A stretch of DNA of 62,521 bases, the filler included, from an uncultured bacterium (GTDB lineage: Bacteria > Hinthialibacterota > Hinthialibacteria > Hinthialibacterales > Hinthialibacteraceae): the NCBI GenBank assembly GCA_964449065.1. It is 6 parts of 6 records of this genome, joined end to end, with 100 filler letters (N's around TTAATTAATTAA, not from the genome) between each part and the next. Parts side by side here need not be neighbours in the genome. Positions count along the whole stretch, not along the records: positions 41,955 to 52,192 come from CAYVAZ010000183.1; 5 more parts are not named here. One strand, given 5' to 3'. Positions 42,025 to 49,640 of this stretch are shown piece after piece. The first letter of the stretch is position 1. The number at the start of each line of letters is the position of its first letter. The notes beneath the pieces were generated by a model that was given only the letters and a program-made list of their open reading frames with translations, did no database searches and was not told the DNA's origin. The position numbers and the translations under genes were made by a program.

Positions 42025-45000
42025 ATGGTCACAATGAACGCCATCCTCAATATTAACGCGCGCGGGCTGGAGGCCGCGAAAGCGGGGCTTGATGTCACCG
42101 GGCAAAACATCGCCAACGCCAATACCGATGGCTACTCCCGCCAACGGGTGGTACAGCGCGCCGCCGATGCCATCAACCTTCCGCAAGGAATCTTCGGCCA
42201 GGGCGTGGAACTCCTGACCGTCGAACGCATTCGCGACGCTTTTTTAGAGAGCCAAATTCGGGGAGTCAACAGCGACAAAGCCTTTAACGAAGAACTCGAC
42301 CGCCTCTTTTTGCGTATGGAAGCCGTGCTGAGCGACCCGCTCGCCCCGGTCGGCGTGGATGACGCCACCGATTTGGGCGGTATCAACAACCTGCTCTCCC
42401 GCTTTTTTCAATCGCTGAACGACTTATCCGCCACCCCCGACCGTCCGGAAACCCGGCAGGCCGTCATCGATAACGGTTTATCTCTCGCAACCACGTTCAA
42501 CTTCGCCGCGGAAGAACTTAACACCATCCAAAACGATCTCAACGAGCGCGTCATCTTACTTTCCGAAGACGTAAACCGCAAAGCCGAACAAATCGCCAAA
42601 CTCAACCAACGCATCGCGATCAACGAGGTGGGCGGAAAAAATTCGTCCAACGATCTGCGCGACCAGCGCGATCAACTCTTATCTGACCTATCCGAAATCA
42701 TCCCCATCCGCACCGCCGACGGCACCAACGGTATGATTGATGTCACGTTGGCAGGCCAACGCATTGTTGATGGAGTTGAATTTACACCACTACAGATCGA
42801 AATAAACGATCAACCCGATTCCACCCAATTGGCCAATATTCGAATCGGGCGGAGCGGATTGAATATCGAAGACGATATCATTCGGCAAGGCAAACTCGGC
42901 GCAACTCTGGAAGCGCGTGACCGCATTGTTCCCTTTATGGAAAATGAAATCAACACTCTGTCGCGCGCCATTATGTTTGAGATCAACAAAATTCACAGTG
43001 CCTCATCCGGATTGGAAGGCCAGGAACGTCTGCAAAGTTCCTTTCGGGCTCCCAACAAAGACAGTGACTCATTCGGAAATTTCACGCTGCAACAAATCTT
43101 TAATGACAATAGCGAACGCGCCAATATCGACTCCCGTTTGCGCCCTTTTCCCGTGCAGGACGGTAGTTTTAATATCCGTGTTTCCGACGATGAAAACAAT
43201 ACCCGCGATGTATTTGCCGTGGATGTTAACACCACCGATACCCTCAACGACATTGTGGACCGCATAAACCGGAGTGACGGTATCGTAAAAAAAGCCGAAT
43301 CCGCTCTTTCATTCGATCCGGTCTTCGTCCGCCGCGCGGCCGGCCAAACCGGTGCGGAAATCGAGGAACTTAACGGTCCAATCTCTCAGTTGGAAGCGCT
43401 GGAAAGCACGCCGCTAGCCGAAGCGCCCGGCCAGCAGCAATCATTTGAAATCATCGTGCGCAACGAAGGCGGCAGCCAAGTCGATATCGATCCCACCACT
43501 GCCGAAATTGACAATATCACCGTCAACTTTACCGGCGCCTTTACCATGCAGCAATTGGTAAGTGAAATTCAAACCCAAAGCAACGGGTTGGTACGGGCTT
43601 CCCTCGTGGAAAGCAAAACCGATCCCGATGTGTCCGTCCTGCAAATCGAAACCGTTAACGAAGAATTCACCTTTTCCATTCAAAACGATACCTCCGGCAT
43701 CATTCGCGGATTTGAAATGCCGATTACCGATCCCAACATCCCGCTGATTGGAGGCACCGCGACTCAGGTCGCCGCGGAATTCGCCATATCCGAAAACATC
43801 AGTTTCTTTGGAACCGGGAATCCTTCGTTCTCCCCAAACTTTCCGGGACCGCCGCCCAACGTCATCGAACCGGGACGTTTTGAGTTCGTAACTGTCGATA
43901 ACAACAACGTGCCGACTGTGACTACAATCGCGTTAAATCCGGGCGCCATTGATACCTTAAATGATTTGGAAGGGATATTGGAAAACGCCAATCCCAATAT
44001 TGATGTTGAAATAACCGACGACAACCGCTTCATCATTCGGGCGGAAAACAAGCGCTCATTTTTCTTTCAAAACGATACCACCGGCCTCATCAATGCGATG
44101 GGGTTTGATGAAATTAAAGGTTTCGGCCAAGTGGGCAAAGACAATTTCATAGACGGTTCCTTTGAAATCCTGGTCGCCAATCAAGAAGGTTCCGTGCAGA
44201 ATATTGTTGAAGTTCCCATTTCCGCCAACCCATCCCGTGTGGGCGGCATTGTTTCGCTTAACGATGTAATAGAAAGCATCAATTCCGCTGCCGGTACCGC
44301 TGCGGCTCCGGTCCGGGCATCTTTGGTGGAAGACCCGAACGATTCCTCCCGCTCTGTCATTCGGGTAGAAGCGGAAAGCGGATTCGAATTCACCTTCCGC
44401 AGCGATGATAGTTTTATCCTGTCCGCCCTGGGGTTTACCGAAGGGCCGGTGTTAACCATGAATTCCGATCCGCCCATTACCGGCGGCGCGTCGGTACAAG
44501 CGTTAGGCGACAGCATCGGCGGCATCGTCCGTGCCGAACTCACCAAAAATAACGATATCGAACTCCAAACCACTGCGCAAGAACGCCTCTCCTTCACCGG
44601 AGACACCAGCGATTTTCTCGCCGCGTCGGGGATCAACTCCCTCTTTCAAGGAACAGACGCGCTCACCATGAATGTGAACAAAGAGGTCTTAAATAATACC
44701 AACCTGCTGGCGGCTTCCAGCGACGGCAATCCCGGCAACAACGAAGCCGCGCAAGCGATGGCGGAACTCGAGGTAAAAGATACCATCAACGGACAAACCT
44801 TCAGCGAAAAATTCCGCTCGACCGTGGCAACCCTAGGGGTGGAAGGCAGCAGAGCCCGGCAGTTCTCCGAAACCAACAATGAAATTCTGCGCGAACTTCA
44901 ACTTCTGCAAGAGCAGCAATCCGGCGTATCGCTGGATGAAGAATCCATCAATCTCATCAAGTTTCAACAGGCGTTTCAAGCTTCCGCCAGAATGATCAAC

Positions 45001-45048
45001 ACCATCGATCAATTAATGGATACCATCATCAACCGGTTGGGAACCTAA
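42025..45048 (+). CDS. flgK: Flagellar hook-associated protein FlgK, enlarged
   Basis: VTGQNIANANTDGYSRQRV, NDLRDQRDQL, SGVSLDEESINLIKFQQAFQASARMI. Confidence 0.95.
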   Translation: MVTMNAILNINARGLEAAKAGLDVTGQNIANANTDGYSRQRVVQRAADAINLPQGIFGQGVELLTVERIRDAFLESQIRGVNSDKAFNEELDRLFLRMEAVLSDPLAPVGVDDATDLGGINNLLSRFFQSLNDLSATPDRPETRQAVIDNGLSLATTFNFAAEELNTIQNDLNERVILLSEDVNRKAEQIAKLNQRIAINEVGGKNSSNDLRDQRDQLLSDLSEIIPIRTADGTNGMIDVTLAGQRIVDGVEFTPLQIEINDQPDSTQLANIRIGRSGLNIEDDIIRQGKLGATLEARDRIVPFMENEINTLSRAIMFEINKIHSASSGLEGQERLQSSFRAPNKDSDSFGNFTLQQIFNDNSERANIDSRLRPFPVQDGSFNIRVSDDENNTRDVFAVDVNTTDTLNDIVDRINRSDGIVKKAESALSFDPVFVRRAAGQTGAEIEELNGPISQLEALESTPLAEAPGQQQSFEIIVRNEGGSQVDIDPTTAEIDNITVNFTGAFTMQQLVSEIQTQSNGLVRASLVESKTDPDVSVLQIETVNEEFTFSIQNDTSGIIRGFEMPITDPNIPLIGGTATQVAAEFAISENISFFGTGNPSFSPNFPGPPPNVIEPGRFEFVTVDNNNVPTVTTIALNPGAIDTLNDLEGILENANPNIDVEITDDNRFIIRAENKRSFFFQNDTTGLINAMGFDEIKGFGQVGKDNFIDGSFEILVANQEGSVQNIVEVPISANPSRVGGIVSLNDVIESINSAAGTAAAPVRASLVEDPNDSSRSVIRVEAESGFEFTFRSDDSFILSALGFTEGPVLTMNSDPPITGGASVQALGDSIGGIVRAELTKNNDIELQTTAQERLSFTGDTSDFLAASGINSLFQGTDALTMNVNKEVLNNTNLLAASSDGNPGNNEAAQAMAELEVKDTINGQTFSEKFRSTVATLGVEGSRARQFSETNNEILRELQLLQEQQSGVSLDEESINLIKFQQAFQASARMINTIDQLMDTIINRLGT

Positions 45049-45075
45049 AGATAAACAAACGTATGGGTAAATATT

Positions 45076-47814
45076 ATGGTACGAATCACACAATCTCTTT
45101 TAAGCGACCGTACACTCTTTAACCTGCAAAACAACATCAACCGGGTTGCCCGCTTGCAGGATCAACTGGCCACCGGCAGACGGGTCAACCGTCCGTCTGA
45201 TGACCCCATTGATTTCCCCTTAAGTTTAAGCCACCGCACCACCATCAACCTGGGGCAAAGCCATCTGCGCAACATTAACAACGCGCGCTCTAATCTTGAT
45301 CTGTCCGAAGCCAGCTTGAACTCACTGACCGAAGTTTTGCAAAACGTACGCCAATTGGCTGTACAAGGCGCCAACGAGACCAACGACGCCGAAGCACGAT
45401 TGGCCATTTCCGACCAGATCAAAGAACTCTTCGGCGAAGTCGTTAATCTCGCCAATTCCAACTTTAACGGGCGCTATATCTTTGGGGGCAGTTCCACTAC
45501 GAATCAGCCGTTTGTGGATAAAGACGGCGTGGTTTTATACAAAGGAGACGATTTTCAGCAGCAGGTTTCCATCAGTTTTGGGGCAACCATCACCTCCAAC
45601 ATTCACGGCCTTGAAACCTTTATGCATACCCCCAACAAAATCACCGCCTCGCTGGAAATCGAAGACACCAACGAACCGCTCGCGCAACAGTTGCGCAAAC
45701 TGCATCCCTCGTTTATGAATGCACCCCCCTTACCGGGAACGCAGCCGGGCTCCGATTTAGAAGCCTCACCCAATCCAAACAATTCACCCAGTCCCTTGCC
45801 CAACAACAACGCCGACTTTTTTATCCATGGGACAAAAGTCAAAGTCGATCTATCGGTCGATTCATTAGAAGATGTCAAAAACCGCATTAATAACACGGTG
45901 GAAGATGTAACCGCCTCCATCGATGAGCGCAACCGTTTGGTGATTACCTCGCAGCGCTCGGATCAATTGCAGTTGCAAGACGGCAGCACTGACACCACGT
46001 TCACCAAAGAGCCTCCGCAAGGCTCCAACCTCTTAACCGCGCTGGGATTAAACCGCCGCGTCGAAAGCAACCGCTCGTTAACCCAAGGGTTTCCCGCGAA
46101 TGACCCGCTCTTCGACGGCACCCAAACTCCCCCGCCGGAACGCTCGACCGTGCGCGTCCAGGGGAACTCTCAACTGTTCGTATCCGCCAATACGGGACCG
46201 TCTAATAATCAAGCGGTGCCGTTTCAAGACAACTTGGCTATTACCGATGTCGATGCCGACGGCAACGAATTGCTCGACGAAAACGAAAACCCCGTGTTCG
46301 TCAATGAGTTGGAAGCCATTCGCGTTACCATCGATGATGAAGTGATCGATATCGACCTGCGCGCCTTGACGGAAGGGCGCGATTTTAACGGCACAACCGG
46401 CGATAACGATGATCTGCCCGGTTCTGATTTGCAGGACCTGCTTAATCTCATTAACAACCATCCGCAGTTGAAAGGCAAAGCAACCGCTTTTATCAATGAT
46501 GACCAAACCGGGATCTCTATCTCAGCCACAGGAACCACCGAAACCGTGTCCGTCTCCAGCGTGCGTAAACTCTTTGGACGCGATATCACCACCCGTGTGG
46601 AAACCGATGCTAATGACGTACAAACCATCAGCCGCATGGAAAAGCTGGATTTCAGCACCAAACTTGCCAATATCCCCGGCGCGCTGGTAGATGCAGACAC
46701 AGGCAACAGCCTCGGTATCCGCAACGGCGAACCGCTTCCGGGTTCGGAAACACCGGCCACCAACGAAGGATTCATCTCCATCAATAACAATGGCGACATT
46801 CATTCCATTGATTTACGGGATGCGGAAACGATTGGTGATGTGATTCGCACCATCAATGAAAGCCCCGCACAAGTAACCGCTGCCATCAATGAAGCAGGTA
46901 CAGGTATCAACATTTCCCCGGAATTAGAGCACGACGGCGTGTTCAGTATTATGGATGTGCAAGACGGCACCATCGCCCGTGATTTGGGTCTGTTCGCTCC
47001 CCCGCCCCCGGCACAGATTCAAGATACCATCCAAACCATTTTCTCACGCACAACCCAAGCGTCCACCGTCGTGCCGGGGATGTCCGACGGCGATTTCAGT
47101 TTAGAAGTCCGCAATGGCGCCGGAGAAACCTTGGAAAACTTCACCATCCCCGTGAATACATTTGACACCATCGGGGATATCATCGACCGAATTGATGCCA
47201 TCGATGGAGAAGCAGGCCCGGGACAAGGATTGATCTCCGCCAACTTCACCAACGGCACCTTCAACATCGTCAGCAACTTTGACGGCCACACCATGCTGAT
47301 TGATGCCGCCAATGACACCACCGGCACCGATGATCTCAGCAAATTCACCCAACGCATGGGCATCGCGCAATACACCGGCGTGCGGTTTGACGGCGAGCCG
47401 GCGGAAATTTATTCCAGCAGCCAGCGCACCGCTGAAATCCTAGGCATTGCGGGAGAAGGAACACTCAATGAAGTGGAAGAAGCCAACATCTTCAAAACCA
47501 TGAAAAACCTGGAAACCGCCCTGCGCCAAAACGACACCGAAGGGATACAAGCATCACTCGATGCCATTGATGTGGATTTAGAAGAAATATTAACAACGCG
47601 TACATCCGGCGGAGCCAGGCTCAACCGGTTGGACAACACGCAAGCGCGCCTGGAAGAAGCCGAAGCGTTAATCCGCCAGCAGCTCTCATTTGTTGAAGAC
47701 GCCGATCTGGCAGAAATCATTACCGAACTCACCACCACCCAAAACGCCTTCAACGCCTCGCTGCAAGCCTCCGCCAGATCCATCCAACAAACTCTCCTGA
47801 ACTTTCTCAGATAA
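45076..47814 (+). CDS. flgL: Flagellar hook-associated protein FlgL, enlarged
   Basis: MVRITQ...LATGRRVNRPSDDP, NGRYIFGG, EDADLAE...TLLNFLR; follows flgK. Confidence 0.93.
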   Translation: MVRITQSLLSDRTLFNLQNNINRVARLQDQLATGRRVNRPSDDPIDFPLSLSHRTTINLGQSHLRNINNARSNLDLSEASLNSLTEVLQNVRQLAVQGANETNDAEARLAISDQIKELFGEVVNLANSNFNGRYIFGGSSTTNQPFVDKDGVVLYKGDDFQQQVSISFGATITSNIHGLETFMHTPNKITASLEIEDTNEPLAQQLRKLHPSFMNAPPLPGTQPGSDLEASPNPNNSPSPLPNNNADFFIHGTKVKVDLSVDSLEDVKNRINNTVEDVTASIDERNRLVITSQRSDQLQLQDGSTDTTFTKEPPQGSNLLTALGLNRRVESNRSLTQGFPANDPLFDGTQTPPPERSTVRVQGNSQLFVSANTGPSNNQAVPFQDNLAITDVDADGNELLDENENPVFVNELEAIRVTIDDEVIDIDLRALTEGRDFNGTTGDNDDLPGSDLQDLLNLINNHPQLKGKATAFINDDQTGISISATGTTETVSVSSVRKLFGRDITTRVETDANDVQTISRMEKLDFSTKLANIPGALVDADTGNSLGIRNGEPLPGSETPATNEGFISINNNGDIHSIDLRDAETIGDVIRTINESPAQVTAAINEAGTGINISPELEHDGVFSIMDVQDGTIARDLGLFAPPPPAQIQDTIQTIFSRTTQASTVVPGMSDGDFSLEVRNGAGETLENFTIPVNTFDTIGDIIDRIDAIDGEAGPGQGLISANFTNGTFNIVSNFDGHTMLIDAANDTTGTDDLSKFTQRMGIAQYTGVRFDGEPAEIYSSSQRTAEILGIAGEGTLNEVEEANIFKTMKNLETALRQNDTEGIQASLDAIDVDLEEILTTRTSGGARLNRLDNTQARLEEAEALIRQQLSFVEDADLAEIITELTTTQNAFNASLQASARSIQQTLLNFLR

Positions 47815-47985: not shown

Positions 47986-48489
47986 ATGAAAAACCTTCAC
48001 GTGATCTTTACTCTTTCCTTACTCGTAGCATGCACCCAACCACTTATTTCTACTGCCGAAGAAAAAATTGGATGGTCAATCGACAAGCCTGCCGAAACCA
48101 TTCCGGATGAAAACATCTATGGCTCCGTTTTTGGCTACAACATGTCAAACTGCGAAGTCTCGTTTTCTAAACATGGAATTGAATTTGAAACGAAGAATAA
48201 ATCCGGCTATCTGGCTAACGCTCGCTTGATCATTTTTGTCAACGAAGAAGACTATGACAAAGAAATCATCGTAACGCCACAAACAGAGGATTCGGTCCCC
48301 CACATCCACATGCATGTTAAGATCGAAGGCCGCGATCAACCCGGCATACTGATGTACACTCAGCTATACACAATGCGCTTAAAGATTAAACAGGTTTCAG
48401 AAAACAAACTCGAATGCGCCATTCACCTATCCTTGCCGGACTACAAGAAGAGTTATCTGGCCGGAAAATTCAACGCAATCCGCAACTAA
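47986..48489 (+). CDS. Hypothetical exported protein, possible lipoprotein
   Basis: AAGGA RBS, hydrophobic leader with LVAC lipobox-like motif. Confidence 0.6.
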   Translation: MKNLHVIFTLSLLVACTQPLISTAEEKIGWSIDKPAETIPDENIYGSVFGYNMSNCEVSFSKHGIEFETKNKSGYLANARLIIFVNEEDYDKEIIVTPQTEDSVPHIHMHVKIEGRDQPGILMYTQLYTMRLKIKQVSENKLECAIHLSLPDYKKSYLAGKFNAIRN

Positions 48490-48649
48490 AATGGATCGCA
48501 AACAATATAGGGCCGGCTCAATGCGCAGCGTAGCCCACCATTCGCGTTATGAAGCCTTTCTTCTTCAAAATTTCATTTTGTAAACTTATGCATAAAATTT
48601 ATCTAAAGAGGCAGATAATTGGTTGATTGATTTTTGTTCGATATTATCC

Positions 48650-48680
48650 TTTTATCCATTATAATTTGTTTAGGATAAAA
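48650..48680 (+). promoter_or_regulatory. Putative -10 box inside an inverted repeat (operator-like) upstream of the E3-like toxin
   Basis: TTTTATCC (48650-48657), TATAAT (48660-48665), GGATAAAA (48673-48680). Confidence 0.45.
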
Positions 48681-48682
48681 AG

Positions 48683-49148
48683 TTGACATACATCCCAATA
48701 CCTAAGCCATCGATATTAGACGGATTAGAATCATACATTCAAAACGGCGAAAAGAGATGGCGTAGTCACGATGGCAAACGAATTTATACTTGGGATGGTC
48801 TACATGGTGAAGTAGAAGTTTTCAACAAAAGAGGCAAACACCCAGTAGTTCATCAAGGCTGACTTGATGGGTTATAACTTAACCATCCACATGAAATGAC
48901 TAGGATCAGTCAACCACAAGCGTTAGCGCAGTGTTATACCCCCTTGCATAAGGGGGTGGAGCCGTAGGCTCCGGGGGATTTTGCGTAGTTGGAAGCGTGC
49001 TTCGATCCCCCCTAGCCCCCCTTAACAAGGGGGGGGACAACGGATAGCCAGCCGTCATTCTTTGATTGACAGACTACTAGGTGCCCTTGATCCTGTAAGT
49101 GGTCATAAAATTAAGAATGCTGTTAAAGGAAGATTCATCGATGTCTGA
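48683..49148 (+). pseudogene. Colicin E3-like cytotoxic RNase gene interrupted by a MITE
   Basis: TTG 48683: MTYIPIPKPS...KRWRSHDGKRIYTWDGLHGEVEVFNKRGKH; resumes at 49077: LGALDPVSGHKIKNAVKGRFIDV-stop 49148; 76 aa once joined. Confidence 0.85.
48846..49076. mobile_element. 231-bp MITE inserted at a CTAG site
   Basis: Ends TAGTTCATCAA / TTGACAGACTA (8 of 11 inverted match), flanked by CCAG (48842-45) and CTAG (49077-80); removal restores the toxin frame. Confidence 0.8.
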
Positions 49149-49362
49149 AACAATTTCAAATACCTTCATAAACAAATGCATTTTAGGTGAAGAAAACCCT
49201 GAAAATATCGAAGACTATGTGGATATGTGGCATGAGTCTGAATCAACACTAGAACTACATGAATACATAGGTTTGACAGAAGATGAATACGAAACGTGGC
49301 TGCGATACCCCGAAAAACTTCCCCAAATCATCTCGAACCATAAAAAGGGAACAACCATGTAG
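49141..49362 (+). CDS. Small acidic protein, putative antitoxin/immunity partner (copy 1)
   Basis: ATG 49141 overlaps the toxin stop (ATGTCTGA); AAGGA RBS; 73 aa. Confidence 0.7.
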   Translation: MSETISNTFINKCILGEENPENIEDYVDMWHESESTLELHEYIGLTEDEYETWLRYPEKLPQIISNHKKGTTM

Positions 49363-49392
49363 GATGGGTTGAGGCTGTTCGCGAAACCCATC
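49359..49392 (+). repeat. GTAG-type REP palindrome between the paralogues
   Basis: GTAG-GATGGGTT...AACCCATC; other GTAG-type hairpins at 151-173 and 49682-49706. Confidence 0.6.
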
Positions 49393-49424
49393 ATGACCAA
49401 AATATAAATATATAAGGACTAACG

Positions 49425-49640
49425 ATGTCTAAACCATCCACAACATTTATCGGTAAATGCCTGAGTGGTGATGCGCTCTATGAAGATATAGATGACTATA
49501 TCGACCTCTGGCACAATTCCGATTCAGAAGAGAAACTGCACGAATTTTTAGGAATGACTCACGATGAATACATCGAGTGGGTCAAACATCCGGATATTCT
49601 ACCCAGCATCATTGCCAACCATAACAAGGTCTCGATTTAA
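49425..49640 (+). CDS. Paralogue of 49141..49362 (copy 2)
   Basis: Shared pattern TFIxKCxxG...IxDYxDxWHxSxS...LHExxGxTxDEYxxW...LPxIIxNHxK; AAGGA RBS. Confidence 0.75.
   Translation: MSKPSTTFIGKCLSGDALYEDIDDYIDLWHNSDSEEKLHEFLGMTHDEYIEWVKHPDILPSIIANHNKVSI

Follow-up and report, generated by a model that had tools for sequence, protein, structure and literature searches.

We analysed a window of 62,521 nucleotides, joined end to end from six records of the genome of an uncultured bacterium of the family Hinthialibacteraceae (GCA_964449065.1; 5.2 Mb, 87% complete, 515 contigs). The subject of this report is a small gene cluster on its contig CAYVAZ010000183.1 (C183), where a gene for a ribonuclease (RNase) of the colicin E3 type is interrupted by a short non-coding element and followed by two related genes for small proteins, hereafter referred to as partners. 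A first-pass annotation had proposed here a hidden stand-alone E3-like RNase, split by a miniature inverted-repeat transposable element (MITE) and coupled to a duplicated partner. The features of the locus are the following:

48638..48665, plus strand: sigma-70-like promoter candidate (TCGATA-16-TATAAT), 10 of 12 matches, predicted only
48650..48680, no strand assigned: 8-bp inverted repeat with the -10 box between its arms, the right one of which overlaps the AGGA ribosome-binding site at 48672-48675; at chance level
48683..48841, plus strand: 5' part of the RNase gene, 53 codons, with D38, H41, E45 and H53 (PF09000 match)
48842..49080, no strand assigned: 239-nt non-coding multicopy MITE-like element (genome BLAST copies, CTAG-type ends)
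49077..49148, plus strand: 3' part of the RNase gene, 23 codons and stop, with R72 (alignment with an intact homologue)
49141..49362, plus strand: partner 1, 73 amino acids (aa), acidic, all-helical by prediction; a likely antitoxin in the short form, which has no Ala-Ala-Arg (AAR) tail (family profile, model)
49425..49640, plus strand: partner 2, 71-aa paralogue of partner 1 (paralogue comparison)

The split RNase gene and the inserted element

The open reading frame (ORF) at 48683-48862 starts with TTG behind the AGGA sequence and encodes 59 aa, as first annotated, the first 53 of which match the Pfam family PF09000 (Cytotoxic) at E 1.6e-7 and with 32 bits against a curated cut-off of 22. 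The family C-terminus is supplied by the 3' piece at 49077-49148, where 15 of 23 residues are identical to those of an intact homologue. Reading through without positions 48842-49076, the 235 nt whose removal had been proposed, yields an in-frame protein of 76 aa with zero internal stops, which matches the profile of 47 intact stand-alone homologues at E 1e-42. These homologues, retrieved by a protein search that covered lengths of 29-93 aa only, measure 75-86 aa, are 56-78% identical and all carry PF09000. The toxin stop (49146-49148) overlaps the partner 1 ATG at 49141, the overlap being of 8 nt. Since the family profile aligns to residues 494-548 of colicin E3 (E 2e-12), D38, H41, E45, H53 and R72 can be equated with D510, H513, E517, H526 and R545 of the colicin, the last of which we take to have a functional role. 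PMC3482391 treats both the D/H/E site and the second conserved His of the E3-type domain.

Scans with the toxin yielded 187 genome and 347 metagenome stretches, of which the best 80 of each kind were used together with 4 viral loci; 162 of these 164 loci held a callable toxin ORF. The WD..H..E.E motif is kept in all 162 toxins, an in-frame stop precedes 127 of them by at most 30 codons, and a conserved start of their own (ATG, GTG or TTG at 74-80 codons) was found in 130 of 132. The small size of the 47 homologues and the upstream in-frame stops therefore agree with the earlier claim that the RNase has no delivery domain; no receptor, translocation or secretion N-terminus was found among homologues of 29-93 aa or in the longer upstream frames inspected. 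Judged from its sequence, the toxin domain belongs to PF09000, yet is neither a colicin nor a polymorphic toxin, and the stand-alone RNase is predicted to act on ribosomal RNA within its own cell. In this genome the enzyme is likely inactive, because the truncated product loses the last 23 residues including R72. Of 130 toxin genes, 85 start with GTG or TTG, suggesting that translation is kept weak on purpose.

The insertion itself (48842-49080) has 248 BLAST pieces on 171 of the 515 contigs of this genome; full-length copies number seven including this one, the other six being 83-92% identical to it. Its ends are sharp and of CTAG type, with random flanks; each base of CTAG is conserved in 38-42 of 46 left ends and in 101-107 of 118 right ends, and the left end at the locus reads CCAG. 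The 235 nt removed for read-through correspond to the element minus one CTAG copy. The premature stop at 48860-48862 lies in the element, whose fold is strong (z -5.7) and includes GC-rich internal hairpins. Being short, non-coding and multicopy, with defined inverted ends and a target duplication, it has the properties of a MITE, as first proposed; no cognate transposase was found between paired ends in this assembly, 87% complete and in 515 contigs. Three runs of one study showed no empty-site allele, but their contigs skip 48732-48839, which makes them uninformative on this point; the right junction of the insertion is bridged without differences by an 810-nt contig. Genome-wide the element appears modular, its right ~79 nt occurring about 120 times against 46 left ends and other end types being present too; there are 29 paired elements of 100-149 nt, and many contigs terminate within the element.

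The partner family and its coupling to the toxin

The partner lies directly downstream of the toxin in 159 of 162 loci, the remaining three having 5, 131 and 280 nt of room, and the same 8-nt overlap as in the window recurs in 152 of the 157 partners with an assignable start. In the window, the start of partner 2 also retains the GATGTCTAA junction typical of these overlaps. The genome loci from the toxin scans belong to at least eleven phyla. Among 1,799 randomly sampled genomes the partner was found in at least 4 (seeds excluded, most searches scoring at most 11 candidates per genome), and all four loci have the E3-like gene upstream. Within the family of the window it is present in 4 of 19 genomes. 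The toxin accompanies it intact, as a two-gene pair, in one of these and is reduced to at most a weak remnant of 14 residues in another, and the other two have the partner alone. We infer that the module is rare and scattered and that it is often the toxin that is lost first. Among plasmids, 5 records hold the partner, and a full-length stand-alone toxin was not found at E<=1e-8. As minor observations, Acetobacteraceae records hold a peptidase-less pair before hisS (L055, L071, L073) or after ispG (L042), and a second, partly degraded copy lies upstream in L052 and L073.

For co-folding we used the intact pair of a relative (L072), chosen because its partner, of 73 aa, gives the top score with both partners of the window. 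The pair reached an interface score (ipSAE) of 0.82 in three runs, whereas the best of 3 controls stopped at 0.25, with contacts agreeing by at least 97% and a predicted local distance difference test (pLDDT) value of the partner of at least 83; of 157 solved complexes, 116 attain the mark applied, as do 2 of 215 mismatched pairs, a calibration which is only rough with the alignments used. The predicted interface places the partner core 24-58 (D24, D27, W30, H31) on the toxin face with R49, the invariant H52 and R71 (L072 numbering), the acidic partner helix D24-H31 contacting toxin residues that include these three. The model supports binding of the partner near conserved residues of the toxin. 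On the whole, we consider it highly probable that toxin and partner form a toxin-antitoxin pair, in the toxin-first arrangement suggested in the first-pass annotation.

The two partners of the window (73 and 71 aa) are 49-51% identical, close to the half estimated originally, and their genes share 132 of 213 nt, with 0.40 nonsynonymous (dN) and about 1.7 synonymous (dS) substitutions per site; their sisterhood obtains a p of 0.5 in the approximately unbiased (AU) test. A recent tandem duplication was rejected by the dS (~1.7) and dN (~0.40) values. Because dS is that high while the split toxin is otherwise still ~70% identical to intact homologues, we infer that the two copies diverged long before the toxin was split, and the reading of their retention as a sign of orphan immunity is not supported. 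The dN/dS ratio shows long-lasting purifying selection, but offers no sign of selection after toxin loss, given the same residual identity of the toxin. Orphan immunity in this genome is possible.

Over 137 aligned partners, W30, H31, G44 and E49 are invariant; the partner model has five helices and no strands (pLDDT 81), and the family comprises 3,911 clusters at 50% identity (E<=1e-3). None of the 137 matches Imm-Cloacin or Imm45, and none matches a helix-turn-helix (HTH) family, nor did structure searches return an HTH fold. Searches of Pfam, NCBIfam, PADLOC, PDB sequences, Foldseek PDB and VIA (best Z 2.9) gave no credible match and the ESM Atlas only hypothetical clusters, the missing fold match not implying a new fold. 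By these comparisons the partner would belong to no named family and have no solved relative, which agrees with the earlier view that it is not the colicin E3 immunity protein. Some proteins carry the partner domain in tandem, others in fusion with MucR, with NUDIX or with another domain of ~270 aa (P0062, P0068, P0072, P0147, P0107, L195, L065).

A peptidase gene and a candidate release mechanism

The toxin and the partner of the module as first described both stand; what had been overlooked is a third gene of the CapP/IrrE type, and the solo partners of phages. A scan of neighbours revealed a recurring gene for 320-370 aa that overlaps the partner 3' end in relatives. Its product is a PF06114 peptidase with capP as best PADLOC model (E 1e-24 to 1e-32, 7 of 7 tested) and with CapP (7T5T) and IrrE/PprI as best PDB matches, both by profile and by fold. 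Its model (pLDDT 94) matches 7T5T by fold (E 1.6e-9, 278 columns, template modelling score about 0.5), and the layout is that of CapP/IrrE, an HExxH peptidase followed by HTH and GAF-like domains. From 142 distinct partners, 10 were dropped for too little downstream sequence; in the remaining 132 loci the peptidase follows the partner in 80, with HExxH in 78 of these. The motif [AVI]AR[SADTP] is found in the tail of all 80 partners with a peptidase against 8 of 52 without; among the latter it occurs in 6 of 32 long partners, the core WH being kept in all. Where the peptidase is present the Ala-Arg pair is invariant (80/80), preceded by Ala in 76 and before that by M, L or I in 73, and none of 20 short partners has a peptidase. 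In long partners the AAR is closely followed by an amphipathic segment at the C-terminus. The presence of the peptidase changes 19 times on a tree from which the tail was left out.

The window locus has no peptidase gene and its partners are short forms without the motif; a search of the assembly of this genome gave no cognate peptidase of full length, its best match being a protein of 184 aa on contig C73, of ImmA type, consisting of the N-terminal domain only and encoded in a different context. This gene overlaps one for 135 aa with two hydrophobic stretches (C73:6269-7208), a layout that recalls RosmerTA-like pairs.

The partner query retrieved 110 phage records (50 Streptomyces, 33 Mycobacterium or Mycolicibacterium, 25 Gordonia and 2 other), which are highly redundant and amount to a handful of groups. 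The toxin query retrieved 4 phage records, all within the 110, which leaves the partner alone in 106; in the phage regions inspected, four of five hold a solo partner. Likewise, the toxin is present in 5 and absent from 31 of 36 partner loci in IMG/VR, several of them on contigs of 270-530 kb. The partner domain falls within PHROGs 14299, 12828, 12685 and 10992, all of unknown function. Toxin and partner occur together in three Gordonia phages, Phabuloso, Kamaru and LitninMcQueen; in Phabuloso an immunity repressor is directly followed by the E3-containing and partner-containing genes and then by a small ImmA-like protease. The two former genes (52 and 51; L211:2481-3834) bear the depositors' labels HicA-like and HicB-like, which Pfam did not confirm; the HicA-like-labelled one has a C-terminal PF09000 and the HicB-like-labelled one starts with the partner domain, so that they are possibly a double toxin and double antitoxin fusion. 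The solo partners suggest counter-defence, for which a solo antitoxin homologue has a phage precedent in AdfN against DarTG1 (PMC11825919). Defence-type neighbours of the bacterial loci include PD-Lambda-4_B, Drt8, DpdJ, SoFic and AbiLii. A role of the module in abortive infection, as first suggested, may be called plausible.

On the observed gene order, overlap, E3 domain, insertion, third gene and co-occurrence of motif and peptidase a more complete picture can be proposed. We lean towards regarding the locus as a MITE-split, peptidase-less copy of a likely toxin-antitoxin gene set, the intact relatives of which mostly carry a toxin-releasing peptidase. CapP cleaves CapH at the F82/R83 bond and is stimulated by single-stranded DNA (ssDNA) (10.1101/2022.04.27.489752, 10.64898/2026.05.16.725639), and IrrE cleaves DdrO at L106|R107 (PMC12828697). 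In the gene set described here, as modelled, the all-helical partner would bind and block the RNase, and the peptidase probably cleaves the long partner before the Arg of the [MLI]-A-A-R motif. By analogy with CapP and IrrE, the chances that the trigger would be ssDNA from DNA damage or phage replication are evenly balanced. Proteins ending in hydrophobic-Ala-Ala, such as those carrying the ssrA tag and cleaved LexA, are recognised by ClpXP. We tentatively suggest that cleavage might leave a toxin-binding fragment whose -Ala-Ala end resembles a ClpXP degron, upon which the antitoxin would be degraded and the RNase freed. Degradation would have to follow, since the predicted interface does not extend to the cut site and cutting alone may not free the toxin, and the conserved alanines would be explained by a cut fragment ending hydrophobic-Ala-Ala. 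Whether the module would act against phages and the phage-borne solo partners as antidotes is, as a joint claim, a matter on which we could argue either side with equal force, and we are similarly divided about the anti-phage role by itself. The full combination, a three-part anti-phage system in which an ssDNA-sensing CapP-type protease cuts at A/R, the -Ala-Ala degron leads ClpXP to free the RNase and phages, from actinophages to very large ones, counter with tail-less, cleavage-proof orphans, is doubtful; if true, it would give a function to four PHROGs now without one.

Several results weigh against this picture. The motif was defined after the data had been seen and the loci are mutually related; phylogenetic control leaves 6 well-supported independent pairs, of which 3.6 go in the same direction and 0 in the opposite (p 0.125), so that the association is then not significant. 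The 52 of 132 loci without peptidase have an apparently intact toxin and partner, and the peptidase is therefore dispensable. The predicted interface excludes the tail that would be cleaved, and the co-fold was made with the pair of a relative (L072) instead of the window proteins. The signal from defence genes nearby is weak: a PADLOC match at E<=1e-15 was obtained for 11 of 214 neighbouring ORFs, several with generic domains and without a control set. Furthermore, the 17 phage orphans in the tree form one long-branched group apart, with a support of 83 in the Shimodaira-Hasegawa-like approximate likelihood ratio test (SH-aLRT), and some phage partners are fused to unrelated domains such as NUDIX; the phage orphans may for these reasons have another role.

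The latter points lend weight to the idea that the partner domain is a general helical module of phages and bacteria, antitoxin in one lineage only and, in its phage copies, unrelated to counter-defence. The large size of the family, its four PHROGs and its tandem and fused forms are in favour of this idea, but the orphans compared keep the acidic D-x-x-D/E-x-W-H helix of the predicted interface and, in the stretches compared, have no AAR tail, as expected of a cleavage-proof antidote; we regard it as unlikely, though worth keeping in mind. The scarcity of defence neighbours and the frequency of the two-gene form would suit a plain type II addiction or stress module, without anti-phage role, in which the peptidase cuts the partner just to lift repression in the manner of CapP-CapH. 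CapH and DdrO are indeed repressors cleaved in a C-terminal dimerisation region, and the AAR likewise precedes a C-terminal amphipathic segment. This explanation is nonetheless improbable in our opinion, as none of the 137 partners matches an HTH family, no HTH fold emerged as far as the structure searches can tell, no upstream inverted repeat is conserved and solo partners recur in phages. Finally, the locus could derive from an orphan polymorphic-toxin cassette awaiting recombination onto a secreted carrier, solo partners being immunity against E3-type effectors of competitors. Tox-ColE3 is a known tip with downstream immunity genes and stand-alone cassettes occur in such systems (PMC3482391), and the partner stands alone in 2 of 19 family genomes, a third having at most the toxin remnant. 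Against it, the toxins have their conserved own start, a Pfam scan of 136 flanking ORFs found no Rhs, CdiA or type VI secretion family, the genome G039 has a long E3-tipped ORF yet no partner match, and the coupling to a cytoplasmic peptidase does not suit the model, all of which makes it very improbable.

Known systems, significance and locus setting

The catalytic domain is homologous to those of colicin E3, cloacin DF13 and the pyocin S6 rRNase (PF09000; PDB 1E44, 1JCH), with which the module shares the conserved residues and the toxin-then-partner order; in contrast to this group, the toxins stand alone at 75-79 aa, without receptor, translocation or Rhs/CdiA region. The partner is predicted to be all-alpha, whereas the immunity families of Im3 (Imm-Cloacin) and Imm45 are described as alpha+beta in PMC3482391. 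The likeness to CapP with CapH and to IrrE with DdrO resides in the sequence and full-length fold of the third gene product and in a candidate cut with Arg at P1', followed by a C-terminal helix. Unlike CapH and DdrO, the presumed substrate has no detectable HTH, is a predicted toxin binder and has Ala at P1 in place of Phe or Leu, and CapP and IrrE control transcription of other genes (10.1101/2022.04.27.489752; 10.64898/2026.05.16.725639; PMC12828697). VapKSC (PMC13373217) is likewise a three-gene toxin-antitoxin operon in which a proposed ssDNA-sensing enzyme modifies the antitoxin and an RNase is freed, and its anti-phage activity has been demonstrated; its parts are a kinase, a STAS antitoxin and a PIN toxin instead of a peptidase, an unnamed helical antitoxin and an E3 RNase. 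An ImmA/IrrE-family peptidase is encoded with a toxin, as here, in the predicted PIN-HTH-DUF955 systems (PMC5499597), PD-lambda-2 (PMC9519451) and RosmerTA (PMC10440598), where the peptidase mostly comes with an Xre HTH, as a fusion or as a pair, and acts in RosmerTA as the antitoxin; the passages on these three systems make no mention of an E3 RNase or of the partner family. AdfN of T4-like phages is an enzyme with demonstrated counter-defence (PMC11825919), whereas the phage orphans described here are predicted binding proteins. RelS-RelI (PMC13284704) was considered as a relative and rejected for its different fold.

We found no description of this gene set in the literature, supplementary tables of toxin-antitoxin and defence candidates and most subscription papers being outside coverage. 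In the relevant passages of a review, PF09000 members are placed only among bacteriocins and effectors of contact-dependent growth inhibition (PMC9990079), and a term search of a BECR survey from 2026 brought up no mention of E3 (10.64898/2026.08.28.747851). The reviews consulted treat E3-type rRNases solely as arms that are delivered into other cells. The reading as a toxin-antitoxin set with a releasing peptidase would, if true, make an E3-type rRNase part of a toxin-antitoxin circuit that regulates itself and whose antitoxin belongs to no named family, and would give CapP/IrrE peptidases, so far repressor cutters, a direct role in toxin release with a predicted cut site. Solo partners in more than 100 phage records would be candidates for counter-defence. 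The copy in the window is a decayed member and chiefly a pointer to the family.

The inverted repeat that had been noticed around the upstream TATAAT does exist, with arms TTTTATCC (48650-48657) and GGATAAAA (48673-48680) on either side of 48660-48665; it is matched by 35 of 300 shuffles and has a fold z-score of -0.9. The upstream repeats of 130 homologues have a mean best arm of 5.7 against 5.5 in shuffles. The repeat being at chance level and those of homologues barely longer than in shuffles, its reading as an operator was rejected. Promoter-like sites numbered 4, with 3.9 expected from shuffles.

On one side the locus is bordered by flgL and a gene for 167 aa, and on the other by a large convergent gene, metH-like by eye. 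Part of the stretch also occurs in two runs from one study, possibly the source sample, that carry the label microbial mat metagenome; no RNA data set was found among the sequencing runs containing part of it. The 167-aa gene upstream of the toxin (47986-48489) has a lipoprotein-like signal by eye and no Pfam match, nor any counterpart among 19 family genomes, which made a comparison of synteny impossible. Short repeats belonging to other multicopy families stand at 48508-48546 and 49358-49410; these two flank the toxin gene and separate the partner genes. Further upstream (42025-47814) are flgK and flgL, whose products are of unusual length (1007 and 912 aa) and have big central parts mostly devoid of Pfam annotation.
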